Virus record (IMG/VR): IMGVR_UViG_3300045988_135485
Source: a virus
DNA: 64,000 nt
Strand: one strand, 5' to 3'
Shown: piece by piece, positions 7,117 through 56,008 of the stretch
Position numbering within the stretch: position 1 is the first letter of the stretch
Layout: every line of letters begins with the position of its first letter
The notes under the pieces: generated by a model
What the model was told of the DNA's origin: nothing
Seen by the model: only the letters and a program-made list of their open reading frames with translations
The model's database searches: none
Position numbers and translations under genes: made by a program

Positions 7117-7584
7117 TCACATTAAATTTGATTTTGCAGAACTTAACAATCTGTCGAACTGCGACCTTTTATCAAATTCATCAGAACTTTCTTCTTGCAT
7201 AAGGCCTTGATAGTGAGCCTGTACTTTTTCTTTAAAAATTGTTGCTAATGCTTGCAAAATACCCGGTTTTGCAATAAAAAGTTCATTTTCCTGATTGTAA
7301 TATTCATGAATTTCTTTATTGCGGAACAAAGGCCTCATAAAAGGTTTTAACCTATTTCTATAGTCAATATATTTTCCCATTTCAAAAGCTTCCTCTGCTC
7401 CAGCCTCTTCTAAAACATCACCCCAATACGGCAGTTCTTCACCCTCAAAAGGCTTTTGTTTAGAGAATTCCCATAGTTCAGCTTTCATCATTTTACGGAT
7501 TTTGTTAATGTCTTTTTTGTTCGCGACATACAAATAATTTCTATATCCCATTAGTCTTGCTCCTTCATACAAAATATTCCACAT
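7117..7584 (-). CDS. hypothetical protein
   Basis: Tiled ORF directly downstream of the PP-loop gene. Confidence 0.35.
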   Translation of the reverse strand: MWNILYEGARLMGYRNYLYVANKKDINKIRKMMKAELWEFSKQKPFEGEELPYWGDVLEEAGAEEAFEMGKYIDYRNRLKPFMRPLFRNKEIHEYYNQENELFIAKPGILQALATIFKEKVQAHYQGLMQEESSDEFDKRSQFDRLLSSAKSNLM

Positions 7585-8327
7585 TCAACATAACAATCTT
7601 TAGGTTTTCTCCCTTTCATATCGGGGCTTAATTCGTCTAAGAAAATATGCCGAGGATTTTTATTTGCTCCCAAATCAACCAAACGGCACCCTAAACGGCG
7701 AGATTGTTCTGCGCGTTTTTTAAAAACATCAGGGAAGTTTTTACGCACTAAATTCCAATACCAAACAGAACCTGATTTTACACACCCTATACAGTTGGCA
7801 TTTGGGAACTCGTATTTGGTATATATTTCAGGAAGTTTAATCCCTGCGCTTTCCATTTCAGCAAAACAACGATGTTTATCGTATCCATTGTAAATAAGTG
7901 GACATTCAAGAGTATATCCGATGTTCTTTTTGCTTTTTCTGAATCCTTCTGCACGCTTTTCTTCGCCCTTGGTATATCCCATAACAATAATATCTTTTTC
8001 TTTATCAAAGTTGTTTTTTCTTTCCCACTCCATACGCGCTACCTGCTTAAGTTCAAACGTGCAAGGCGCAAATCCTGATGCGTTACTGACAAACTCATAA
8101 TCTTCAAATACTTCTTCGATGTCGCAGTTCTCATAACACGGGTTTATTGCTTTTTCTATTTTAACTCCAAGCCATTTTTCACAGTCTTTTAAGAAACGAA
8201 TATTATCTTGATGTTCGTTTGCTACTGGATTATTTACTACGCGGATATTGTCTTTGTCATACTTCTCAATAGCAAGTTTCGTCGCTACTGCACTTGCAGC
8301 CCCGCAAGAAAAATAACAAACAATCAT
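7551..8327 (-). CDS. PAPS-reductase-like PP-loop ATP pyrophosphatase family protein (CysH/DndC-like)
   Basis: N-terminal YFSCGAASAV resembles the SGGxDS PP-loop. C-terminal Cys cluster CYVECGIFC resembles the CysH-family EC-G-x-H/C tail. Confidence 0.5.
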   Translation of the reverse strand: MIVCYFSCGAASAVATKLAIEKYDKDNIRVVNNPVANEHQDNIRFLKDCEKWLGVKIEKAINPCYENCDIEEVFEDYEFVSNASGFAPCTFELKQVARMEWERKNNFDKEKDIIVMGYTKGEEKRAEGFRKSKKNIGYTLECPLIYNGYDKHRCFAEMESAGIKLPEIYTKYEFPNANCIGCVKSGSVWYWNLVRKNFPDVFKKRAEQSRRLGCRLVDLGANKNPRHIFLDELSPDMKGRKPKDCYVECGIFCMKEQD

Positions 8328-8551
8328 TCCTTAAACTCCTTGCTATTAACTGCCTCTTGCCAAGTCGGGTATTCTGCAATCAGTTTTAATTCTGTTTGAA
8401 CTGTCTTTTTCCAAAGCCTTTCTGTATACCCGTTTGGAAATATGAAATATACCCAGCTAAAAGGTGATTTTGTTTCATCAACCCGTATCACCACAACGCG
8501 TCCTTTTGTTACTGCTAATTCAAAAATTTGTCCTACTTTAATCATCGCCAT
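8324..8551 (-). CDS. hypothetical protein
   Basis: Tiled ORF. Confidence 0.3.
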   Translation of the reverse strand: MAMIKVGQIFELAVTKGRVVVIRVDETKSPFSWVYFIFPNGYTERLWKKTVQTELKLIAEYPTWQEAVNSKEFKE

Positions 8552-8713
8552 AATCTCCTTGTTATTAAAAAGACCTAAAAAAAATAAGGGCTATAAAGTC
8601 CAGAAATAAAAGCTCAATCATTCCTGCTAAAAGATAGATTAGATATTCATCATTAAATCTTCTTCTTTGTAAAATGTCACAAATTATACAAAGAAGAAGA
8701 ACCGTCCATATAA

Positions 8714-8953
8714 TCATAGCTTTTTCTCCTTTCCACATTTAGCACAAACTACTTTATAATGAGGACATTTTTTACATCTTCGAAAAAAGCAACCGGTACA
8801 ATCTGGGTTTCCTTCACAGACATTAATCCACTCATGCCTACAAAGTAATTTCTTAACCCAACTGGTAATTTTTGGTCTAGTCCCAAAAAGCTTTTTCTTT
8901 CTTTCAAGCATTAGTGTCGACATCTTCTTTCTTCTCCAAACACCCATCTTCAT
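8714..8953 (-). CDS. Cys-rich zinc-finger protein
   Basis: CxxC/CxH pairs (CRHEWINVCEGNPDCTGCFFRRCKKCPHYKVVCAKCG). Confidence 0.4.
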   Translation of the reverse strand: MKMGVWRRKKMSTLMLERKKKLFGTRPKITSWVKKLLCRHEWINVCEGNPDCTGCFFRRCKKCPHYKVVCAKCGKEKKL

Positions 8954-9098
8954 TATATTTTCTCTTAGGAAAAATACCGTTAGGATAGGTAATGTCTATT
9001 ACTTCTCCACAGTTAGGGCAAACTATTGTTGGAACTAACAAGGGAAGGTCTATCTTATTAAAGCATTTTGGACACTGGATTGTTCCATAATTATCCAT
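8904..9098 (-). CDS. zinc-ribbon protein
   Basis: Two CxxC pairs (CPKC...CPNC). Confidence 0.4.
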   Translation of the reverse strand: MDNYGTIQCPKCFNKIDLPLLVPTIVCPNCGEVIDITYPNGIFPKRKYNEDGCLEKKEDVDTNA

Positions 9099-12058: not shown

Positions 12059-12484
12059 CTAAATCTTAAAAGCTGATGTCTCTTCAAATTGAGCTTCAGT
12101 CGCTGTTTTAAGTATCATCCAAACATTTACACCGTAATAATCGGCAATTTTTATCAAATCAAGCAAGGTCAAATCTATTGTCCCTCTTTCAATCTGATTC
12201 AACTTCGTTGAAGTGATGCCGATTTCAGCGGCTACAAATGCCAGCGGTTTCTTAGCCCGGAAATTTCGTTCCCAAGCCAGTTTTTCTCCAAGGGCGGCGT
12301 GTAACTTAGTAAGGGGCATACGACTGATAATCTTTTTATTGCTGTTTGATTTCAAAGGCAGATTAAGTCTTTTGGCGAGATTGTATGGATATGTTCTCGA
12401 AGTTCCAAATTCTTTACTGATTTCACTAGCAGTTCTTCCGTTCTTAATCCACTCGATTATTTTATCTCTATATTCATTAAGCAT
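12059..12484 (-). CDS. XRE/Cro-C1-type HTH transcriptional regulator (two HTH-like segments)
   Basis: LAFVAAEIGITSTKLNQIERGTIDLTLLDLIKIADYYGV is a classic Cro/C1 HTH. An N-terminal HTH-like segment (RTASEISKEFGTSRTYPYNLAKR) is also present. Confidence 0.6.
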   Translation of the reverse strand: MLNEYRDKIIEWIKNGRTASEISKEFGTSRTYPYNLAKRLNLPLKSNSNKKIISRMPLTKLHAALGEKLAWERNFRAKKPLAFVAAEIGITSTKLNQIERGTIDLTLLDLIKIADYYGVNVWMILKTATEAQFEETSAFKI

Positions 12485-16456: not shown

Positions 16457-16672
16457 TTAGTTCAAGTTTCCTTCCACAGCTATAATTTTTGGCTCGTCCG
16501 ATTCAACTGCTTGATAAAATTCATCAACACAGGTTTCATCTAAGATTTCACTTTCATTGTACATACAACGCTTAGCTAGGTAGATAGCTTCTTCTGTTGA
16601 ATCAGCCTCAACTTTAACTCTCCGTTTTCTGTACATTGTCTCTGTATATTCGGCATCAACTGTAAATATCAT
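16457..16672 (-). CDS. hypothetical protein
   Basis: Tiled ORF. Confidence 0.3.
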   Translation of the reverse strand: MIFTVDAEYTETMYRKRRVKVEADSTEEAIYLAKRCMYNESEILDETCVDEFYQAVESDEPKIIAVEGNLN

Positions 16673-18280: not shown

Positions 18281-18724
18281 TTATATTTTTGATTTTCTCG
18301 TATAGTGGTCTCTACTATACAAGAAATCCCAATAACGACTCAACTCATCCAACATATTATACATAGTAAGTTCTAAAGTAGATGGATTTATTTCCTGACC
18401 GTTAATCCCCTCTTTTGGAGCAACAGTTAAAAAGAGATAATTACCATCTCCGTTATCTCTCCAATACTCATAAGAACTTACGTCATAGAAAAAATAAATA
18501 CTGACATGACGTAATTCCACCTTTAGTTTATCAGCTTTTTTATAAAAGGCATAATAACCTTTTTTATTAAAACAATCGGTTCTTAAATCTACTCTGAAAT
18601 CAAAAATATCTTCACCATTTTCTTCATAAAAAACATCAACTTTTGTTGATAAACTATCGGCTAGAGCTTCCCAATCGCGGCTAGAAAATACTTTTTCAGT
18701 CATAATTTTACTCCTTTTCTTCAA
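18281..18724 (-). CDS. hypothetical protein
   Basis: Tiled ORF. Confidence 0.35.
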   Translation of the reverse strand: MKKRSKIMTEKVFSSRDWEALADSLSTKVDVFYEENGEDIFDFRVDLRTDCFNKKGYYAFYKKADKLKVELRHVSIYFFYDVSSYEYWRDNGDGNYLFLTVAPKEGINGQEINPSTLELTMYNMLDELSRYWDFLYSRDHYTRKSKI

Positions 18725-19032
18725 TCTTTTTCGCTTTCGGAATCAGAATCGCTTTCGTCTTCCTCGTCCTCGTCATCTTCGTCCTCGTCCTCATCATCTT
18801 CACAATCACAATCGCAATCATTTATACCAACCAAGTCAAAGCACCACTCCCAGTCAAACCATAGGAGGTCGTTCATAGTTACTTCCGGGATTCCGTCAGG
18901 ATAAAGTTCCCGAATCTGGGCCGAGAACGCGTCCGCTTTCCCGGCATCGACTATTTTCTCTTTTGTATTTATGGCTGTTTCACCCCATGGTTCAAATTCT
19001 TCTAAGTCAAAATCTTTACAAATCATATACAT
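18721..19032 (-). CDS. small protein with a poly-acidic tail (candidate DNA mimic)
   Basis: The C-terminus is CDCDCEDDEDEDEDDEDEEDESDSDSESEKD. An 18-bp palindrome lies about 50 bp upstream. Confidence 0.35.
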   Translation of the reverse strand: MYMICKDFDLEEFEPWGETAINTKEKIVDAGKADAFSAQIRELYPDGIPEVTMNDLLWFDWEWCFDLVGINDCDCDCEDDEDEDEDDEDEEDESDSDSESEKD

Positions 19033-19082
19033 TTTTATGTTCCTTTCAATTTCTGTTCAATTTTCCTATTCTTCTTTCAATT

Positions 19083-19100
19083 TGTTCCAACGTTGGAACA
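19083..19100. promoter_or_regulatory. 18-bp perfect palindrome TGTTCCAACGTTGGAACA (copy 1), candidate operator
   Basis: Self-complementary 18-mer about 50 bp upstream of the 18721-19032 gene. Confidence 0.6.
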
Positions 19101-19118
19101 ACTTGGGTAATTTTATGG

Positions 19119-19784
19119 TTAAATCATTTTTATAAACTTTTTCGCCTCTTCAACTGAAAAAGCTTTGCAAAAATCATCCGGGAAATTGTTATACATTGCT
19201 TCAAAAGCTTTATCAAAGTCGCTATCAATAAAGCCGCTTAAATTATCCTCCTCTTCATCATTTCTAAAAAGATGATACTCCCAACATTCGCAGTTGGCCC
19301 AATCAGAATACTGTTTAACTTCCGTCTTTACCCAATAATCGATTTTTTTCTTAAATTTGACAGAAATCCGATGCTTTTTAAATTCCCGGTAAATATGTGC
19401 CTTTTTTACTAAATAGAAACCTATACATCCGCAATCCCAGCCAGTTGATTTTCCAATAAACATATTCCATCCGCTGTGGTCGTAGACAGATACAGGATAA
19501 ACAATAAAACCCATTTCCTCTAAACGTTTTTTGTCTGTCTGGTAATTACCAGATGACCAATCGGAAAAGTCGCCTGTTTCTGTAAGTTCATTCTCAACGT
19601 ACTCACAAGAATTTTTTACAAAAAACTTACCAATAAGGCAATCACAATCGTTGCGAGGATTGTCGCAGAACCGGTCTCTGGTTATTTCAATTCTCCAGTT
19701 CTCTAATTTAGGGTCAATAACTCCCGGCAATTCATACTGAATCTCGTTCTGGATTACGTTCTGAATCTCGTTTGCATTAATCAT
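19119..19784 (-). CDS. hypothetical Cys-rich protein
   Basis: Start moved to ATG 19784 (MINANEIQ) behind AGGAAAGG. The track start at 19841 is a TTG inside the palindrome. Confidence 0.35.
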   Translation of the reverse strand: MINANEIQNVIQNEIQYELPGVIDPKLENWRIEITRDRFCDNPRNDCDCLIGKFFVKNSCEYVENELTETGDFSDWSSGNYQTDKKRLEEMGFIVYPVSVYDHSGWNMFIGKSTGWDCGCIGFYLVKKAHIYREFKKHRISVKFKKKIDYWVKTEVKQYSDWANCECWEYHLFRNDEEEDNLSGFIDSDFDKAFEAMYNNFPDDFCKAFSVEEAKKFIKMI

Positions 19785-19833
19785 AACTTGTTCCTTTCCT
19801 AAAACAAATTCAAGTTGTTCAAGTGGTTTAAGT

Positions 19834-19851
19834 TGTTCCAACGTTGGAACA
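19834..19851. promoter_or_regulatory. palindrome copy 2 (perfect)
   Basis: About 50 bp upstream of ATG 19784. Confidence 0.6.
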
Positions 19852-20405
19852 TTTACATTCTTCTAGAATGTTAATAATTTAGTTTTGTCTAAATAAGATG
19901 AAAAAATATTTTTGTGCTGTATTTGTCTAAAAATTAACCTACTTTTGAGTATGTAAAAATAGGTCGAAATTTACATACAAATTGGTATATATAATAATTT
20001 GTTGCTGTCTTCCTAAATTGTGTATTTGTGTATTTTCGGAAATGTATCCAAAAATACATCTGAAGATACGCAACCAATAAGCCAACTATTAAACCAGTCA
20101 ATAAAATGGTTATTAAACCAGTCATTAAACCCCACTTTTTTAGGCAGTGGTTGCATACACTGTCCTCTCTGGTACCCCCCTACCTGAAAGTAGGCTCATA
20201 TTACTCACAGCTAAAATTTTGAAGATTTTACCATCTTGAGAAAAGACACAGAGGCGGGGGCGTTTCTCAAAAAGGTCAAATTCGAGTTTTACAACCATGT
20301 TTTGTTTGGCATATTTCACGATTAAGTCGGATAAGTTCTTTACCATCGTTTGTTTCCTTTCAGTTGTGTTACCATGGTTTGTTTACCATGGTTTGTTTGC
20401 TAGGT

Positions 20406-20423
20406 TGTTCCAACGTTGGAACA
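20406..20423. promoter_or_regulatory. palindrome copy 3 (perfect)
   Basis: About 60 bp upstream of the small ORF 20140-20346. Confidence 0.6.
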
Positions 20424-21170
20424 ATCTTAAAATGAACGCGGAATCTTTTCCCAAAATTCTCCCCAAATTGATTCCGGATTTTGTTTCCAAATCTCGTCCG
20501 GAATCTGGTCCGGATTCTGGTCGGAATTGTCGCCGGAAAAAGTACTCAGTTTTATTCCCTCCCTAGACAAAGAGACGGAATTTTGAAAAAAAGGTATTAT
20601 TCTACCTTTTTTGGACAGAAAAATGAAAAAAACTAGAACCAAGATAGAACAATTATTTCACCATCTTTGACCAAGTTGTTGTTTTTACTCTTTTGTCTAG
20701 TTTTTTTTTGAGTTGACAGACTATTTTAAATTGTCTCTATATAGAATTTTTTTATAAATACCCCATAGGGTATATTTATCTTATTTTTTTTCCGTGAATC
20801 TTAAAAAAAAAAAAAAATCTATTTTAGACAAAATATATAAAAACAATGGGTTAGATGTAAACTACTCCAGTGGTGTTCTAATAATGTTCAAGTGGTTAAA
20901 AAAAAGCGGGTCCTTATTTTATTGTATAAGTTTCATTTGTCTAATTTGTCAGATGTTTTTTCTTGGTTTTTCAATGGCTTATTTTATTTTCTCCTTATAT
21001 AGTAAAAATGATACGTTTCAGTCTAAAAAGTGGTTCTTTGTCTAGACTGTGAAAGTGCTTGAAACGGGGAACGCCTTTGTCTATCTGGCATAGACGGGGT
21101 GTGGACGAAATTCCGCCCTTTCTTCTGTCAAGAAAATGTCTAACAGTCTAAAATCGACAAAATCTGTCAA

Positions 21171-21188
21171 TTTTCCAACGTTGGAACA
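21171..21188. promoter_or_regulatory. palindrome copy 4 (17/18)
   Basis: TTTTCCAACGTTGGAACA. Confidence 0.5.
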
Positions 21189-21200
21189 CGGAGTCAATTT

Positions 21201-21218
21201 TGTTCCAACGTTGGAACT
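21201..21218. promoter_or_regulatory. palindrome copy 5 (17/18)
   Basis: TGTTCCAACGTTGGAACT, 13 bp from copy 4. Confidence 0.5.
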
Positions 21219-21336
21219 TTTTCGGAATCCCTTAATATGATTCCAAAACTTTTTCGCGCGCCATCTTAAGCGGCCATTTAATATATAAATTAAAGAAAAA
21301 TAAAGAAAAGATATAAAGAGAATCCCGCCCGGGACT

Positions 21337-21354
21337 TGTTCCAACGTTGGAACA
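21337..21354. promoter_or_regulatory. palindrome copy 6 (perfect)
   Basis: Followed by the direct repeat cccggattcctgcccggattcctgcccgg. Confidence 0.6.
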
Positions 21355-21386
21355 AATCCCGGATTCCTGCCCGGATTCCTGCCCGG

Positions 21387-22187
21387 TTAGGCGGCCAACT
21401 TTTCGGTTGTTTGTATTTTCTGGTATGCCTGTGTTATCACTTCCACAACGTCGCCCGCCATCGTAACCGCCTCGCCATAACCGTAAATCTTAACAACGTT
21501 ATCAAACGCGGTTATAAATTCGCTGGCTGCTTGCATCAATACGACTTCCGGCGGAAGTTGTACCGATTCCGGGCTGTTTTCCGTTCCCGTTTCTGAATCT
21601 GATTCCGGGTTAGATTCTGATTCCGGGTTAGATTCTGATTCGTCGCTTGTGCTCGGCTTCGGCTGTTTTTCTGGCTTAAGAGCGTCATACAAACCGCGCA
21701 AACTTTCATAGTTTGCAAAAATACTGCCCGTTATTTCTGCAATAGCCGCGGCGGGCGTGCCTATTATGTTAGACTCTTTAATAATATCGCGGTTTAATTC
21801 GATTAATTTTAATGCCGCTTTAATTTTAGCGTAGATGGATGATTTTTGCGGGTGTGTCCGAATATCCGCGTTTATTTTAAATAAGTGTAAAATTATGTGC
21901 TTTCTGAATCCTTTTTCATCCATCTTTTTATTAAAAGTCGAGTAATATAAACGGGCTTTAAAGATTGACTTTACAACGGCGAGTCCAGCTAATCCGGCTT
22001 TGTTTTCCGCGTTTGTTTCTCTTAAATAGGCATTGTAACCCTCTTTTAAATAAGATAAAACTACTTCTTTCGGCTCGCCTGTAAAGTCATTTGACAAACG
22101 AACGTTGCGGGCGTTATTCTCATTTAACGGCTTATAGTCTGGCTTGTGCAGAGGTTGGGATGACTGGTTAATATGTTTAATAGACAT
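21387..22187 (-). CDS. hypothetical protein with ESNPES repeats
   Basis: 266-aa ORF. SESNPESESNPESDSE low-complexity insert. Palindrome 170 bp upstream. Confidence 0.4.
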   Translation of the reverse strand: MSIKHINQSSQPLHKPDYKPLNENNARNVRLSNDFTGEPKEVVLSYLKEGYNAYLRETNAENKAGLAGLAVVKSIFKARLYYSTFNKKMDEKGFRKHIILHLFKINADIRTHPQKSSIYAKIKAALKLIELNRDIIKESNIIGTPAAAIAEITGSIFANYESLRGLYDALKPEKQPKPSTSDESESNPESESNPESDSETGTENSPESVQLPPEVVLMQAASEFITAFDNVVKIYGYGEAVTMAGDVVEVITQAYQKIQTTEKLAA

Positions 22188-22353
22188 GATTTTGACTCCT
22201 GTATATAAAATGTTAATAAATGTTAATAGCTGTTATTTTCTTAATGATTCCACAAGCCCGCAAATAGCGGTGTATATGGTTATAAATAATATTGTGTAAA
22301 TAGCTAGTGTAAACATTGATGACTCCTTTTAGTTGGCTTATATGTTTATTTAA

Positions 22354-22371
22354 TGTTCTAACGTTAGAACA
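22354..22371. promoter_or_regulatory. palindrome copy 7, symmetric variant TGTTCTAACGTTAGAACA
   Basis: Compensatory C>T / G>A changes keep perfect dyad symmetry. Lies 170 bp upstream of the 21387-22187 gene. Confidence 0.55.
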
Positions 22372-22406
22372 TCTTTGATTTAGGCAATATTCAGATATTA
22401 CCGATA

Positions 22407-22428
22407 CGCGGGGGCGGCAACCCCCGCG
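22407..22428. other. GC-rich hairpin (8-bp stem CGCGGGGG / CCCCCGCG, 6-nt loop) without a U-tract
   Basis: Stands out in AT-rich DNA. Not followed by a T-run on either strand. Confidence 0.5.
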
Positions 22429-22534
22429 CGGTTTGCATAAAATTTACTTATTCACAATGTGCTATAACTACCAGCCGCCCGGCTGATGACTGTTATATAT
22501 AAGCTAATTAGTTACTTGTCAACTACTTTTTTGC

Positions 22535-22552
22535 ACTTTTTTTAAAAAAAGT
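22535..22552. promoter_or_regulatory. AC-T7-A7-GT 18-bp A/T palindrome (intrinsically bent DNA)
   Basis: actttttttaaaaaaagt. Confidence 0.4.
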
Positions 22553-22770
22553 ACACTTTTTTTAGTAAGTCATTGTTTTTGCGTGATTCTTTTTTTATGT
22601 TAAGTTTATTATAAGGTATACACACGGGCACGTGCTATACATGCAAACGTAACCTTTACATATAGGCCGGGTGATAGGGGTGTAGGCTTTTTATATGGGA
22701 GAATAAAAAGGTGGCGGAGAACAGGCCCCGATTCTGACCCCCCGCCCAAAACCATTTCCACCTAACACAA

Positions 22771-22842
22771 CCTACCAACTTACCTACCAACTTACCTACC
22801 AACTTACCTACCAACTTGCCTACCAACTTGCCTATCACCTGA
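22771..22842. repeat. 6 x 12-bp tandem repeat CCTACCAACTTA (iteron-like)
   Basis: Three perfect units, two with one substitution each (last A to G), and one degenerate unit. Confidence 0.8.
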
Positions 22843-22845
22843 CAG

Positions 22846-22909
22846 GACCGCGAACGCGAGCGCAGTCACTTTCGTGTTCGCGGTCGCATTCGCGGTCACG
22901 TTCGTTTTC
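22846..22909. repeat. GTRTTCGCGGTC repeat cluster (one inverted copy + two direct copies + a degenerate copy)
   Basis: gaccgcgaac ... gtgttcgcggtc gcattcgcggtc acgttcg. The same 12-mer recurs at 63846-63893. Confidence 0.75.
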
Positions 22910-23050
22910 ATTTTTGAGGTTCTCAGCAAGGGGAACGACCACGAACACGAACGCAAAAGCCGACATAAACTTGACAAGAATCTTAACCAGAACTAGAATC
23001 TTAACAGTCGACCAGAATAATCGACCAGAACAGGGAGGGAGAAACAACAA

Positions 23051-23533
23051 ATGGATTCAATGATAGCAGGCAACAGCCAAAATCAAAATGCACAAAATCT
23101 TAAACATAACTTCAAACAGATAACCTATACCAAAAACTCAACTAAACAGAAAGAGGAGCGTGCCTTCTTCAAGAATCGTGTTAAGAAAGCATTTCTTCAC
23201 TGGTTATATTACAAGGGGCTCATTCCGTGGAAAGAGCTCCCTTCTTTTTTAGATGTTCACCACAAGCATCCGCTAGGCGGTGGCGGCAGCAATGAATTTA
23301 CCAACTTGGTAATAATGGTCAGGCGAGACCATGAGAAAATGAACAGGGAAATAATAGAGCCGCAGTTGCGTGGCATTCGGGAGGGTGAAACCAGAGAAAT
23401 AACGGTTCCTTGGTGGAACTCTGAGAAGGGAGAATTTATTGATTGGGAAGGCATATACCGGTATTTGGAAGAGCTCGAACGCTCTCGACGTATGCGTTCC
23501 TCCGATCGCGCATGCGGTCGCGGAGGTAGATGA
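23051..23533 (+). CDS. HNH endonuclease
   Basis: DVHHKHPLGGGGSNEFTNLVIMVRRDHEKMN is an HNH core (HH...N...H). It is the only plus-strand gene in the left arm. Confidence 0.6.
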   Translation: MDSMIAGNSQNQNAQNLKHNFKQITYTKNSTKQKEERAFFKNRVKKAFLHWLYYKGLIPWKELPSFLDVHHKHPLGGGGSNEFTNLVIMVRRDHEKMNREIIEPQLRGIREGETREITVPWWNSEKGEFIDWEGIYRYLEELERSRRMRSSDRACGRGGR

Positions 23534-23960: not shown

Positions 23961-26471
23961 CTACAGGTCGCTCTGCAAGCGGGCACCCGTCGTCTTGTCC
24001 ATTGTGAGTCCATTCACCATCAAGCCATCGACTTGAAAGCCCATAAAGTTGCCTAATTCGGTCAGCCTCCGTAAGAAGCCTCTCAACCCCACAGGCCTTG
24101 CACGGATAGTCGCACAGCAAAAGCTCGTGTATTTTTCGTACAGAGAATTTACCAATACTGAGCCGCTCCCGGTTTCCGTCCTCCTCGGTCCCTCCTCCGA
24201 GGTCAGGTAGAAAAAAACTGAGTCATTCTCACTGGCCATCTCCCTGATTATCTGTTGATGGCTGCTTGGTAAAGTAAAATCTCTTTGCTCTACCAATTCT
24301 CTAACGCAGGAGATAACCCATGCGGCAATGCCCTCTCTCTCCTCAGCGACTATTGTTTCACCAATGTTGCGGACTTTATCCTTCTTTTTAACCGCATGGT
24401 TGAACGTAAGAATGAGCCATCGTCTATTGAATCCTTCCGATACGTCCTTTGTCTTTGGCAGGTAGTTACTGGCAAACCAATGCGTCGCCATCGGCGTAAA
24501 GGAAAATATCGGTCTTCCTTTGTACTGGCCATCTAAGGTACTTCCGTCAATAATCGATTTAAAACTTGCTCCCGGAATCGGTTGCGATTCGTTTAACTCG
24601 CCACAAATGTTTAAAAGGGATTTGGATAATTCCGTTACTTCGAATTTATCTTCAAACTTGTAGGGAGTTACATATGAAATAACCTCCTTGGGTAGTAAGT
24701 GTTTAACTATTTCCAATAATTGAGATTTACCCGAGCCCGCAATACCATAGAGAAGAATGGCTCTGGCAAATGAGGGCCCCATTCCGAAGAAGGTTGCACA
24801 CATCGCTTCCTGAAGAGCTCTCTTTCTCGCTTCAAAATCCAGTTCCATACCCCAAATTGATTCCAGAAACTTATCAAATCTAGGATGATGGTCAACAAGC
24901 TCAGGTACATATCTGAAGGGCAGCGTATAGGTACATCCGAAGGAAGGGTCGTGAGGAAAGGTCATTCCGTCACTGCTTACGAAACAGTTTGCAAAATTGA
25001 CACCCTGTATTTTTCTACTATTCAGGTCAGTTTGAGGAACAATTGACTTTAATACTTTCAAAACCCCGGCATGATCGTGAGCCTTTCTTGCAGCAGGAAG
25101 ATTCCCGTAATTGTTAGCTACTAAACAAAGTATTTCCTGTTCAGACAATACTTCCCAGTTGGAGCCCTTATACTGCCAGAATTTATCATTCCAGAAGTGA
25201 ACTTCTCCTATTCTCTTCAGGTCTTCCAGCACGGCTCTGGCTATTTCCGTGTGGTCAATTCCCTCCAGTTCTCCCCGTCGCAGTTCCTGTAGACGTTTCT
25301 TTAGGCTAGGAACCTGAATAGTTTTACTGTTAGTTTGTTTTATGTAGGTGAAGACCGTATCTATTTCTAAGGACGTTAAATGCGGAGAACGACTAATTCT
25401 GCGTAGAACATATTCTATGGCCGAAATCCTTTGAATAGCCCCCTCATCTTCGTATTTTTCAAACTCGGTCTTGAGATAATCTTTCAGTTGTTCTACCGAC
25501 CATTCGTTATGTTCGGCATCGAATTTAAGACCCCAGCTTTCTTTCTGTTCCTCGGTAAGTCCGGTATCCCATCCGAGAGGAAGCGGTTTATTTTTCGGGC
25601 CTACAACATCCTGAATCAGGAACTGAATGAGGTTGCGGACACCTTTCTCGATGTCAATGTCGTCTCCGGCCACATTCTCAACACAGCAGGTTTTCCATAC
25701 ATACATACGGTCTATTGCTTCCAGCAGCGATAACTCTCCTCTGGTTACTGCATTTGCATAGAAGCCTGCCATCGTGGTCATCTTTACGTCACGGCTTCCC
25801 TGAGAAACGTAATCCGTAGTTCTGGTCCAGCCTGCGTGAGACAGCGTAATTCCGTAATCTTGGAAAGCGTTCCTTAACATGGATTCGAGGTTTTCCGGAA
25901 GAGGTTTCAGATAAGGTATAACCTCTGTAATCGGTTGATTACAAACGTACGGCTTCTGTGTTTTGGGATGTATTGACGGTGGTAGAACCACTTGGTTGCC
26001 GGAAGATAGACATTCACAAATCATGTGACCGTCTACGTCTTTAATTTTAAACGGTTTCTCTCCTTTATATTTATAAAGGAGAACTTTTCCCTTTTGTCCG
26101 ACACGTTCCCAAGGAGAATATCCACAGATTTCATTGATTATATTAATAAGTGTCTTATTCTCGGTATCAATATCAATGGCAACACATCCCGACTGCGGTC
26201 CTAACGGCAATCCTATGTTACTGTCCGGGAAATTGTTTAGCCAGTGGTCTTGTTCCTGAGGAAGCGGCATCTTGTCCTTATAAGAGGTCCAGTTTATCGG
26301 AATCGGTTCCTTGCCGCGAGGGCGTAACGGTATTACCGGAAGCCCTTTTTGCCAAAGAAGCGGGGCATTATTCTTGAAAAGGTCCTTATTCGGGAAAAGA
26401 GTTATGTTTTGGGAGATTTTTTCTTTCTCTTCTGCTAAGTCCTTGGCTAGTTTTAAAGTATTACCTGTCAT
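23961..26471 (-). CDS. primase-helicase (bifunctional prim-pol N-domain + D5/P4-type SF3 helicase)
   Basis: N-terminus GLPVIPLRPRGKEPI...NIGLPLGPQSGCVAIDIDTE matches the bifunctional primase/polymerase N-terminal signature. Walker A GIAGSGKSQLLE and Walker B-like WLILTFNH are present. Length is 836 aa. Confidence 0.7.
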   Translation of the reverse strand: MTGNTLKLAKDLAEEKEKISQNITLFPNKDLFKNNAPLLWQKGLPVIPLRPRGKEPIPINWTSYKDKMPLPQEQDHWLNNFPDSNIGLPLGPQSGCVAIDIDTENKTLINIINEICGYSPWERVGQKGKVLLYKYKGEKPFKIKDVDGHMICECLSSGNQVVLPPSIHPKTQKPYVCNQPITEVIPYLKPLPENLESMLRNAFQDYGITLSHAGWTRTTDYVSQGSRDVKMTTMAGFYANAVTRGELSLLEAIDRMYVWKTCCVENVAGDDIDIEKGVRNLIQFLIQDVVGPKNKPLPLGWDTGLTEEQKESWGLKFDAEHNEWSVEQLKDYLKTEFEKYEDEGAIQRISAIEYVLRRISRSPHLTSLEIDTVFTYIKQTNSKTIQVPSLKKRLQELRRGELEGIDHTEIARAVLEDLKRIGEVHFWNDKFWQYKGSNWEVLSEQEILCLVANNYGNLPAARKAHDHAGVLKVLKSIVPQTDLNSRKIQGVNFANCFVSSDGMTFPHDPSFGCTYTLPFRYVPELVDHHPRFDKFLESIWGMELDFEARKRALQEAMCATFFGMGPSFARAILLYGIAGSGKSQLLEIVKHLLPKEVISYVTPYKFEDKFEVTELSKSLLNICGELNESQPIPGASFKSIIDGSTLDGQYKGRPIFSFTPMATHWFASNYLPKTKDVSEGFNRRWLILTFNHAVKKKDKVRNIGETIVAEEREGIAAWVISCVRELVEQRDFTLPSSHQQIIREMASENDSVFFYLTSEEGPRRTETGSGSVLVNSLYEKYTSFCCATIRARPVGLRGFLRRLTELGNFMGFQVDGLMVNGLTMDKTTGARLQSDL

Positions 26472-27013
26472 AATCTATATTTCCCCTCTTCAATAACCTT
26501 CGTTGTACCTAACCCTGTCCCCGGTTCTGTACCTAATTCTTCTCTACTTTCCGATTCTGCGAGTTCTCTTAAGAACATTTCTCTTTGTTCAGGAAGAACC
26601 TTTTTTAGAATCTTCAAGACTTTGGATTCAAATTCCCGCATTTGATTCAGATTTGTTGCTCTCTCCGCCAACGTAAGCAGCTTCTCCAGCTGGGTGGTTG
26701 CCGTTCTTTGGATAGAAGCTTTGTCTTTATCGTCTATTTCGTTGGATTTAAGTAATTCTTTAGTTTGCCAGTACAGATTAATTATTTCTGTCTTCAGGTC
26801 TAAGTTTGTCATGGTAGGAAGGTCTGCCTTTGACGAACTTTCTCCGGTGTTAATACTAACCGGTGGGAAAATAAGGTTGAGAGACTTTTTGATAGGTTCT
26901 GAATATGGAGATTCGGCTACATACTTAGGGTTTTTTTTTATCTCTAATCCTATAGAATAAATCTTAAAAACGGTCTCATAATTTATATCAGGATATTTAT
27001 TGTTTTGAGCCAT
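26468..27013 (-). CDS. hypothetical protein
   Basis: Tiled ORF between the HTH and primase genes. Confidence 0.35.
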   Translation of the reverse strand: MAQNNKYPDINYETVFKIYSIGLEIKKNPKYVAESPYSEPIKKSLNLIFPPVSINTGESSSKADLPTMTNLDLKTEIINLYWQTKELLKSNEIDDKDKASIQRTATTQLEKLLTLAERATNLNQMREFESKVLKILKKVLPEQREMFLRELAESESREELGTEPGTGLGTTKVIEEGKYRL

Positions 27014-27227
27014 GGGTCGATTCTCCGTTTAAAATTAAAGGTTCTGAAGAAGTATGGTTTTTAAAAAGTTCTACATCTGTAAGTAGAAAATATACCTTTC
27101 CTCCTAAAGTTCTTCGGGGAACTAATGAACCCTTCTTTATATAGCGGTAAATGGTTTGGTAAGAAACACCGACCCTTTTGGCAAAGCTTTCAATGCTTAT
27201 GCGTTTATCTCTATCAGTAACTTCCAT
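26997..27227 (-). CDS. excisionase/AlpA-family HTH DNA-binding protein
   Basis: ISIESFAKRVGVSYQTIYRYIKKGSLVPRRTLGGKVYF. First gene of the minus-strand unit that diverges from the terminase. Confidence 0.55.
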   Translation of the reverse strand: MEVTDRDKRISIESFAKRVGVSYQTIYRYIKKGSLVPRRTLGGKVYFLLTDVELFKNHTSSEPLILNGESTHGSKQ

Positions 27228-27304
27228 AATCCCTCCCTAAATGTTATGGTATGTTAGGTTGTGTAAAGTGGTGGTAGTCTACGATATATTTTTGTAAATG
27301 TCAA

Positions 27305-35992: not shown

Positions 35993-36443
35993 AGAAGATG
36001 TTTATAAAGATACAATAACCTCTGTTATGAGATTCTTACTTGAAAAAATGGAGGATATACGAACGGAGGGTATATCTGAAAATATCGAATTTAAAAACTT
36101 AGATGGTCATGCTGAAGACCAAGTTCTTGAAAATATTGATTATATATTGTTCAGAAATTTTTGTGGTAATATAGGAGCCCACCTTTGCGATTATACCTTT
36201 GAAGTAGGGGTATCTACGTTCGAAGATGAAAATCTATTTAGACACATTGAGATTATAAACAGGCTTGTGAACCTTTTAGCGCCATTAAAACAGATAACCG
36301 TTTATTCTCATAGAGATTACTGGTTGAAAAAAGGCACATTAACCTGTACAGAACCTTCAACGGTACAACCTTTTGGTAAGTATAATACTAGGGCCGTCCA
36401 GTTTCTTCTGGTAAGTGTTGAATCAACCGAGACAAGGCCCTGA
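35985..36443 (+). CDS. tail completion/terminator candidate
   Basis: Synteny. Last gene before the major tail gene. Confidence 0.3.
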   Translation: MVEEDVYKDTITSVMRFLLEKMEDIRTEGISENIEFKNLDGHAEDQVLENIDYILFRNFCGNIGAHLCDYTFEVGVSTFEDENLFRHIEIINRLVNLLAPLKQITVYSHRDYWLKKGTLTCTEPSTVQPFGKYNTRAVQFLLVSVESTETRP

Positions 36444-36600
36444 CATCGGCTTCTGACCCATAGGATAACCCAAGTTTAATTAAATATATAGCCTCTTTGG
36501 TTAGAGACCGTTCTGTAATTTCTGTTCTCTTTCTTAAACAATCATATATGGACCTTGGAAAATAGATTGTAAGACTGACTGTATCTTCCCTCTCGACCAT
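36388..36600 (-). CDS. ribbon-helix-helix (CopG/Arc-like) DNA-binding protein encoded antisense within the late operon
   Basis: ATG 36600 behind a GGAGA SD. VSLTIYFPRSIYDCLRKRTEITERSLTKEAIYLIKLGL has the strand-helix-helix pattern. It overlaps the 3' end of the 35985-36443 gene. Confidence 0.45.
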   Translation of the reverse strand: MVEREDTVSLTIYFPRSIYDCLRKRTEITERSLTKEAIYLIKLGLSYGSEADVRALSRLIQHLPEETGRP

Positions 36601-55468: not shown

Positions 55469-56008
55469 TTAGTCTACTTCTTTAGAAATATCCACATAAG
55501 TATCAAGAAGAGGAATACTGTCTTGGTACGCTTCCAGTTTACTAGGATGTAGGCAAAAGTCAATAGCTTTCTTAAGTAAAGGAACACTAACACCAATATT
55601 TTTAGCTTGAATATAAATGTCTCTAATATCACATGAGATGGTATTCCTCTCATTCAAAAGTCTATCATAATTAGCAAAGAGCTCCTTAACCTTTTCAATA
55701 TTCTGTTTTTGGTCTTCACTCAAATCCGTCATTTCTCTTGGCTGGTACATTTTACAAGCGAAGGGTATTCCAAGTAAATCTGACAAATACTCATAGTCAG
55801 CCTGTGCCTGTCCGTCATAACCTTTTTCAAGATATACCTTCAAAGCTTTGCTAAACATCCCCTTTGGCAAGAAAGATGAGATATGATTCTTTACGTCAAC
55901 CATGTCTTCTTTAACTGCGTTTCTTTCATGCTCGAGGCTAAGAATTTCTCTCATAATATCTTTCAATCTATCTTTCTGAATTAGACCAGTATCAATTACT
56001 TCATTCAT
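55469..56008 (-). CDS. hypothetical protein
   Basis: Tiled ORF. Confidence 0.35.
   Translation of the reverse strand: MNEVIDTGLIQKDRLKDIMREILSLEHERNAVKEDMVDVKNHISSFLPKGMFSKALKVYLEKGYDGQAQADYEYLSDLLGIPFACKMYQPREMTDLSEDQKQNIEKVKELFANYDRLLNERNTISCDIRDIYIQAKNIGVSVPLLKKAIDFCLHPSKLEAYQDSIPLLDTYVDISKEVD

Follow-up and report, generated by a model that had tools for sequence, protein, structure and literature searches.

The start-associated sequences (SAS/ESAS) of Cluster K mycobacteriophages are asymmetric repeats that include the ribosome-binding site and are tied to the sites at which translation begins in some of the genes. In the hyperplastic early regions of T4-type phages, small genes without known relatives are punctuated by promoter-early stem-loops (PeSLs; PMC2839356, PMC4122927), and the stoperators of Cluster A mycobacteriophages, of the L5 gp71 type, are many copies of one repressor site placed in short intergenic spaces inside operons (PMC9283540, PMC6550527). 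The closest analogue of the element described here is a 17-bp dyad repeat of the Cluster O mycobacteriophages, 5'-TGTTCGGNNNCCGAACA, the function of which is not known (Cresawn et al. 2015, PMC4351075). Our subject is an 18-bp palindrome, TGTTCCAACGTTGGAACA, that recurs in the early region of IMG/VR virus record IMGVR_UViG_3300045988_135485, of which a stretch of 64,000 nucleotides, the window, was analysed as a whole. This palindrome is a real, non-random, phage-specific and dyad-symmetric repeat that is clearly functional. From comparison of sequences we propose, with a probability of roughly 0.45, that it is the lineage-specific site of a single phage-encoded DNA-binding protein that is dimeric and hence two-fold symmetric, rather than a marker of promoters.

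A search of the whole window for TGTTCCAACGTTGGAACA that allowed up to three mismatches, with shuffled sequences as control, returned exactly seven matches, starting at 19083, 19834, 20406, 21171, 21201, 21337 and 22354 and all lying within 19083-22371. The rest of the window holds none, and shuffled sequences gave a mean of 0.02 matches and never reached seven. This count bears out the original prediction, made by a first reading of the letters, that seven copies are found here and none in the other 60 kb. The accompanying description of copy quality was right about two 17/18 copies (21171, beginning TTTTCC, and 21201, ending GGAACT) and wrong about five perfect ones: four are perfect (19083, 19834, 20406 and 21337), and the copy at 22354, TGTTCTAACGTTAGAACA, matches at 16 of 18 positions owing to a symmetric double change, C6T/G13A. 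Nor is the motif equally frequent elsewhere in the window or in hosts. Among 185,579 bacterial genomes (596 Gb) the exact 18-mer occurs at three places only, each time singly, which rules out a host regulon, and in IMG/VR the multi-copy 18-mer is confined to close relatives of the window phage. Several dyad-symmetric sites specific to one phage genome are what a multi-copy, operator-like array would consist of, and the palindrome has this character. The copies are placed as follows, distances being counted from the end of the motif to the minus-strand start codon:

19083..19100, copy 1, perfect, 18 nt past the stop codon of a 221-aa gene and 51 nt from the ATG at 19032 of a 103-aa gene
19834..19851, copy 2, perfect, 50 nt from the ATG at 19784 of the 221-aa gene
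20406..20423, copy 3, perfect, at the gene-proximal edge of a non-coding island and 60 nt from the ATG at 20346 of a 68-aa gene
21171..21218, copies 4 and 5, each 17/18, 30 bp apart from centre to centre, inside the island
21337-21354, minus strand, copy 6, perfect, at the tip of a 16-bp hairpin (21328..21363) directly past the stop codon of a 266-aa gene
22354..22371, copy 7, 16/18 (C6T/G13A), 167 nt upstream of the 266-aa gene, or 37 nt from a doubtful 26-codon open reading frame (ORF)

Understanding what these copies do requires comparison with related phages. The window represents an uncultured tailed phage, a siphophage of ~72 kb that is related to Achromobacter phage JWF and Caulobacter phage Seuss. 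Its close relatives, contigs of 44-72 kb in IMG/VR and Logan/ENA, share 90-98% DNA identity with it. A circularly overlapping contig of 72.5 kb indicates the genome length, and at least one source sample appears, going by its name, to be a human-gut metagenome. No cultured relatives were found at the DNA level; at the protein level the primase (32-45% identity) leads to the ~80-85-kb phages JWF, 2-1, Lumi and Seuss and to EAb13-type Acinetobacter phages as the closest cultured relatives, and the gene order of JWF and Seuss is that of the window. Relatives were gathered through graded primase homologues and through alignments of primase and terminase, with one anchor gene:

23961..26471, minus strand, PrimPol-D5 (P4 alpha-like) primase-helicase

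At least 25 lineages of this family, JWF and Seuss among them, each have a palindrome of their own, 11-20 bp long and present in 4-14 copies, in the early region downstream of the primase-helicase. Lineages being designated by L numbers, these include:

L025, L026 and L027, TTCCA-N4-TGGAA, with centres ACGT / CCGG / GATG and differing flanks
L028, TATGAATCGATTCATA
L029, GACTC-N4-GAGTC
L030, CTAGGT-N5-ACCTAG
L041, GGTTCAA-S-TTGAACC
L056, GTGCGAC-N-GTCGCAC
L070, TAGTCCTAGCTAGGACTA
L086, AAGGTTGACGTCAACCTT
L101, AAAAGTGCAATTGCACTTTT
JWF (L192, NC_029075), GGTTCGTAACGAACC, 10 exact copies with the core GTTCG-TNA-CGAAC, at 69008-81402 of the record, in the early arm or terminal repeat
Seuss (L033, NC_047757), TTTACCT-S-AGGTAAA, at five gene starts (3939, 11123, 17487, 19108 and 19906), overlapping annotated ribosome-binding sites

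About 20 further palindrome types occur at IMG/VR loci. Most of the JWF palindromes abut the Shine-Dalgarno sequence, and no mention of the start-associated palindromes of JWF or Seuss was found in the literature searched. Close relatives keep the 18-mer itself, and other lineages carry a different palindrome in the same place. Orthologues of the 221-aa gene in L035, L101, L106 and L027 are each preceded by the palindrome of their own lineage; therefore the element belongs to the genome and not to the gene. That the sequence is uniform within each genome yet differs from one genome to the next points, in turn, to a factor that acts in trans and that the phage itself encodes. The logic of restriction or methylation sites (AACGTT, CCGG, GANTC, CTAG) was also considered and set aside, there being no consistent pattern among lineages.

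The symmetry of these repeats usually reaches as far as the dyad axis. Of 150 instances, 98 have a Watson-Crick pair at the innermost position, and 14 of 24 families have one there in at least 75% of their copies, compared with 25% expected if these were the bases of a hairpin loop; because a hairpin could not pair there, complementarity up to the axis favours recognition of duplex DNA. Half-sites are constant as well, with invariant arms around variable centres of 4-5 nt within one genome (L029, L026, L030), and asymmetric centres point in either direction with respect to transcription (L041, L059, JWF). Site pairs exactly 30 bp apart, or about three helical turns, are present in the window clade, L056 and L077, whose palindromes are unrelated to one another, and L108 has pairs at 28-29 bp; the stretch with copies 4 and 5 is invariant in five relatives. 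Global tests across lineages saw no sense-strand excess of G.U over A.C and no overall signal of copy-specific flanking complementarity at fixed positions. Taken together, these comparisons lead us to prefer a protein that recognises duplex DNA to a role at the RNA level alone. One half of the earlier idea, that a single dimeric regulator coordinates all early promoters, is thereby strengthened, as the separate palindrome of each lineage, the complementarity at the axis and the 30-bp pairs all point to one phage-encoded dimeric factor. The other half, the link to promoters, is not supported. The genes next to the copies are arranged as follows:

18721-19032, minus strand, 103-aa gene, its start downstream of copy 1
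19119-19784, minus strand, 221-aa gene
20140-20346, minus strand, 68-aa gene
20424..21386, AT-rich non-coding island of 963 bp
21387-22187, minus strand, 266-aa gene, bounded by copies 7 and 6

Three copies (21171, 21201 and 21337) lie within the island, and the remaining four end 37-60 nt 5' of minus-strand start codons, or 167 nt in the case of the 266-aa gene if the 26-codon ORF is disregarded. The placement first described, 50-170 bp upstream of a minus-strand start or in the island, agrees with these distances (50, 51, 60 and 167 nt, and three in the island). A TTG at 19841, listed as the start of the 221-aa gene in the ORF list, is an unlikely start because it overlaps copy 2. To say that every early intergenic gap has a copy is too strong, because only the first ~3.3 kb of a long minus-strand block is so marked and many gaps from 18.7 kb down to position 1 have none. 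Manual inspection and scans of the window found no sigma-70-like -35/-10 elements at a fixed distance from the copies, and a sigma-70 promoter/operator layout was accordingly rejected; the single good sigma-70 site of the block, TTGACA-17-TAGACT at 27304, precedes the operon of an HTH_17 protein and the primase, and copies 4 and 5 flank or overlap a weak minus-strand promoter-like sequence, TTGACT-16-GAAAAT. Relatives with clear promoters are instructive. L029 has five perfect TTGACA-17-TGnTATAAT promoters and L030 three strong ones, and the palindromes of both are elements apart from these promoters, lying upstream, downstream or mostly between cistrons; those of L030 have an A-run before and a T-run after them and lie 35-60 nt upstream of strong TTGACA-17-TAnAAT promoters. 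In L027 and JWF there is no room for a downstream promoter because the palindrome abuts the Shine-Dalgarno sequence. The claim that the palindrome marks each early transcription start is therefore not supported. Two details of L029 may be added: its promoter, TTGACATTATAACCAAAGTATGNTATAAT, is present in five nearly identical copies (13471, 14517, 16743, 18086 and 19631), and in two of them the 5' untranslated region (UTR) has GGGACTC-N22/24-GAGTCCC, whose arms are those of the L029 palindrome.

The copies are not intrinsic terminators either, as six of seven lack a T-run on both strands. The exception is copy 6, whose hairpin has a fold energy of -27 to -29 kcal/mol and was also flagged by a terminator scan; because it is followed by a second hairpin (21321-21336) and a T-rich run, 21328..21363 is a probable terminator. 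Some copies appear, from sequence comparison, to have been recruited as the tips of terminators. At copy 6 two independent assemblies are broken: IMG/VR contig 116539 starts at 21317, and Logan contig ERR11473602_34425 ends at ~21333. As terminal repeats occur in relatives, these breaks (21317-21337) could mark a real end, or else the 34-bp palindrome could have caused an assembly artefact.

If the palindromes are dimer sites on duplex DNA, they would stand at the 5' boundaries of single early gene cassettes, with pairs such as copies 4 and 5 in the terminal non-coding island allowing co-operative binding. The bound protein would then most likely gate or block host RNA polymerase in passage, so that early genes are shut off or silenced by a roadblock; roadblock or gating is the most economical mode of action because the sites lie inside transcription units and not on promoters. 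The repeats would double as short homologies for the gain and loss of gene cassettes, and copy 6 as the tip of a terminator hairpin. Binding by a protein, the choice of binder and the effect of a roadblock on transcription are all three things that we infer. Three candidate binders named at the outset are encoded in the window:

12059..12484, minus strand, XRE-type helix-turn-helix (HTH) protein of 141 aa, upstream of a SNF2 helicase gene
26997..27227, minus strand, HTH_17/MerR-like protein of 76 aa, first gene of the primase operon
36388..36600, minus strand, Arc/Mnt-like ribbon-helix-helix (RHH) protein of 70 aa, antisense within the structural operon

The RHH protein is the best of the three, though unproven. 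A profile search against PDB returned Mnt (E = 0.012), AmrZ and Arc, a Pfam search gave no match, and the JWF homologue is annotated as Arc-like. The protein occurs throughout the family, at a syntenic position in at least 18 distinct sequences, and its predicted base-contacting beta-strand partly tracks the type of motif, matching within groups with common half-sites: T-x-Y is common to the window, L025 and L027; the L125 group and JWF, whose palindromes both have GGTTC...GAACC, share AFT[VL]RIP; and I[TS]V[ML]V[KR]P is found in L136 and L137, both with GGTACG-N3-CGTACC. Against the RHH protein stand L145, which has the A/T/R contact positions of the L125 group together with the motif GTGCGAC-N-GTCGCAC, and L037, which has the protein and no detectable array; the RHH gene, moreover, has no palindrome copy near it. 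The HTH_17 gene is confined to the gut subclade (9 loci) and missing at this position in JWF and Seuss, which have arrays without it. Clustering by gene presence and absence, aimed at a universal binder, was swamped by shadow ORFs, and the universal genes were those of the terminase large subunit, portal, primase and a ~160-aa protein upstream of the primase. A bolder extension, which we regard as improbable, would have the ~70-85-kb siphophage family (gut lineages, JWF, Seuss and Lumi) use a co-evolving 'palindrome code', in which the RHH protein reads lineage-specific palindromes, set ahead of every early cassette and in the terminal island, and blocks elongation and not initiation on the first-injected early genes, and the sites serve as junctions for cassette exchange between lineages of different specificity.

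Several observations weigh against a dimer on duplex DNA. Operators are expected to overlap or adjoin the promoters they control, and these sites have no promoter at a fixed distance; half-sites are spaced from N0 to N5 depending on the lineage, a range that homologous dimers seldom show. Others suit an RNA element, in which each copy would form a stem-loop of 7-9 bp in a 5' UTR or intercistronic spacer and would control the processing, stability or translation of early cistrons, either by itself or with the help of an RNA-binding protein or nuclease specific to the phage. Early transcripts of T7 and SP82 have comparable hairpins, conserved between cistrons, at which processing takes place. 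Hairpins predicted for the copies have energies of -8 to -11 kcal/mol and z-scores of -2.2 to -5.6. The double change in copy 7, kept in all close relatives, was at first taken as a sign of selection on a dimer and not on RNA; that argument is flawed, because C6T with G13A converts C-G to U-A, keeps base pairing and is equally expected from selection on a hairpin. The extended stem of copy 6 has two compensatory pairs as well as sense-strand U.G pairs among five distinct sequences, a result reached by 22 of 500 shuffles, and a refined test found significant copy-specific stem extensions in L086, L101, L106, L056 and L108. In L029 the same arms enclose loops of about 4-24 nt (5, 11, 22 and 24). 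Finally, for 47% of copies a Shine-Dalgarno sequence and start codon lie no more than 60 nt past the end, compared with 20% for random positions, and copies abut the Shine-Dalgarno sequence in L027, JWF, L041 and L059; this proximity weighs less because an intergenic element in a compact genome is necessarily near the next start. We nevertheless hold an RNA element to be rather unlikely. It leaves the complementarity at the dyad axis, which no hairpin could use, and the 30-bp pairs without an obvious rationale, and it predicts neither the missing G.U excess nor copies 4 and 5, which lie in the island with no gene downstream. Identical stems with variable loops within a genome are the reverse of what RNA-binding proteins usually read, and the window clade has no copy-specific extension apart from that of copy 6 (p = 0.73). 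Rfam covariance models run on 18500-23500 gave only two chance-level miRNA matches, and no known RNA family is supported. An anti-Shine-Dalgarno role was discarded too: three of the downstream ribosome-binding regions in the window contain GGAACA, the complement of TGTTCC, and the relation is not seen in relatives.

The identity of the copies could also be maintained without any dedicated binder, if the palindrome were part of a PeSL-like mobile cassette that provides promoter or terminator punctuation, is kept uniform by recombination (concerted evolution) and acts mainly in the shuffling of early genes without known relatives. The motif region is indeed hyperplastic, gene content differing among relatives that are 90-98% identical, and indels between close relatives are bounded by copies, as for T4-type PeSLs. 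In contig 123405 there are eight copies, two of which enclose an additional gene; L012 and L017 have inserts (0.9 and 1.2 kb) with the motif and ~45 nt on both sides, equivalent to window 19040-19101 (copy 1); and in L020 an insertion is accompanied by a copy on a single side. The A-runs, T-runs and downstream promoters of the L030 palindromes fit the same picture. We think this explanation improbable all the same, because the window copies lack a sigma-70 promoter and six of the seven a U-tract, 18 bp is short for homogenising by homologous recombination, and concerted evolution explains neither the axis symmetry nor the 30-bp pairs; cassette exchange is, in addition, compatible with a binding-site function and not exclusive of it. 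An array at an origin of replication, bound by the primase-helicase or an initiator, was offered as an alternative in the original prediction. The cluster does adjoin the P4 alpha-like primase-helicase gene, and three copies lie in a highly conserved AT-rich island. Iterons, however, are clustered beside an AT-rich unwinding region and not tied to gene starts, whereas four of the seven copies here, and most in relatives, stand before genes, spread over 3.3 kb in the window and lying up to 9 kb from the island in relatives, and the island has direct repeats of its own that fit iterons better. We consider an origin array very improbable, and a site for a dimeric phage protein on duplex DNA remains the reading that we prefer.

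The island is distinct from the palindrome and is probably an origin, a terminal-repeat boundary or both, roles that it fits better than the palindrome does, or else an unrecognised RNA. Its core (20560-21270) is 97.2-98.9% identical in four relatives, compared with 83.6-90.9% for the adjacent 266-aa gene. Repeats of the TAGACAAA type occur in both orientations within it, 14 being observed against 1.4 expected over four lineages, and are in tandem in L025; T15/A9 homopolymer runs and variable 11-12-bp tandem arrays of the AAAATCCGG type are also present. At the gene-proximal end (20480-20540) there is a 12-bp tandem array of the GACCAGATTCCG type, whose copy number differs between close relatives, with analogous arrays in L025 (AAAATCGGGATG), L026 (CAAAATCCGGTC, six copies) and L027 (GGCCCAAAATCC, three copies). 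Equivalent islands of ~1 kb exist in L025-L027 and JWF, and the terminal repeats of Seuss end at this place. JWF and Seuss have a ~225-aa gene, the positional equivalent of the 266-aa gene, in or adjoining the direct terminal repeat, with the 1-kb island next after it in JWF, and the motif region is thus the start of the early arm beside a genome end. Lumi likewise has terminal repeats (PMC9959647).

The 266-aa protein, considered as a binder too, gave nothing informative: it has only close homologues, none detected outside the family, with no meaningful match in Pfam, PHROG or PDB and no detectable link to JWF gp002; its AlphaFold model is all-helical, has a predicted local distance difference test (pLDDT) score of 54 and is unusable. 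An acidic low-complexity linker, ESESNPESESNPESDSE, is present in this protein, whose length varies among relatives (254-272 aa), and the 103-aa protein has a poly-D/E/S acidic tail. The minus-strand block begins at 27227 and encodes the HTH_17 protein, a 181-aa protein and the PrimPol-D5 primase-helicase; after a variable slot and the motif region come dozens of small genes that have no known relatives, and further on a SNF2 helicase and a 5'-3' exonuclease. A plus-strand structural block occupies 27.5 to 55 kb, and a second minus-strand block (55.4-64 kb) encodes SbcCD-like proteins. The variable slot holds, in the window:

23051-23533, plus strand, HNH-like ORF, between the primase and the 266-aa gene

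Relatives have in the same slot an RNase H (L025), an N6/N4 methyltransferase (L030), a PAPS reductase (L029) or two endonucleases (JWF). Between the HNH-like gene and copy 7 is a non-coding stretch of 680 bp with about six copies of a 12-bp tandem repeat, ACCTACCAACTT (22758-22853), and several metagenomic contigs of relatives terminate in the region of this repeat. Elsewhere, the minus strand encodes a GapR-like DNA-binding domain (E = 3.9e-8) in a protein at 55469-56008 and a DpnD/PcfM-like small protein at 16457-16672, and L026 has an IS607/IS605-like pair (resolvase and OrfB/TnpB; 7256-9015) inserted between the terminase and HTH_17 genes.

What is new here is that repeated dyad sites away from promoters, known from a few phage groups such as Cluster O, extend across a large and widespread family, with more than two dozen diverged specificities and at least two cultured members, JWF and Seuss. 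Because specificities have diverged and cultured members exist, both the identity of the binder and the choice between DNA and RNA can be put to the test. Should a binder be found, the natural pairs of site and protein would provide a ready-made panel of orthogonal regulator/operator pairs, and it would explain the joint regulation and exchange of early 'host-takeover' cassettes.

Each of the described systems shares some features with this array. Like the start-associated sequences, the palindromes of Seuss and JWF overlap or abut the ribosome-binding site; in contrast, 37-60 nt separate the end of the window palindrome from the start codon, and it includes no Shine-Dalgarno sequence. T4-type PeSLs resemble it in bounding indels among small early genes, and differ in combining a strong sigma-70 early promoter with an effective terminator, neither of which is recognisable at the window copies apart from the U-tract of copy 6 (PMC2839356, PMC4122927). 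The stoperators of Cluster A act on elongation and not on initiation, as we propose here, and co-evolve with their repressor between heteroimmune lineages (PMC9283540, PMC6550527). They are, however, asymmetric sites of 13-14 bp that are read by a monomer, depend on orientation and are found throughout the genomes of temperate phages, whereas the window array is local, its palindrome is perfect and the asymmetric centres of relatives occur in both orientations. The Cluster O repeats come nearest: they are inverted repeats specific to the phage, whose arms are invariant and whose centre varies. Many of them are intergenic or near the 5' ends of genes, at higher density in the non-structural arm, and they were concluded to be separate from promoters, as are the palindromes of L029 and L030 (PMC4351075). 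Even the outer bases, TGTTC...GAACA, are alike. Cluster O phages belong to another phage family with another host and have more than 30 copies genome-wide, one third of them in coding sequence, compared with seven in 3.3 kb here; and their repeats were reported not to be involved in indels, whereas two cassette insertions among the relatives of the window phage are bounded by copies of the palindrome.

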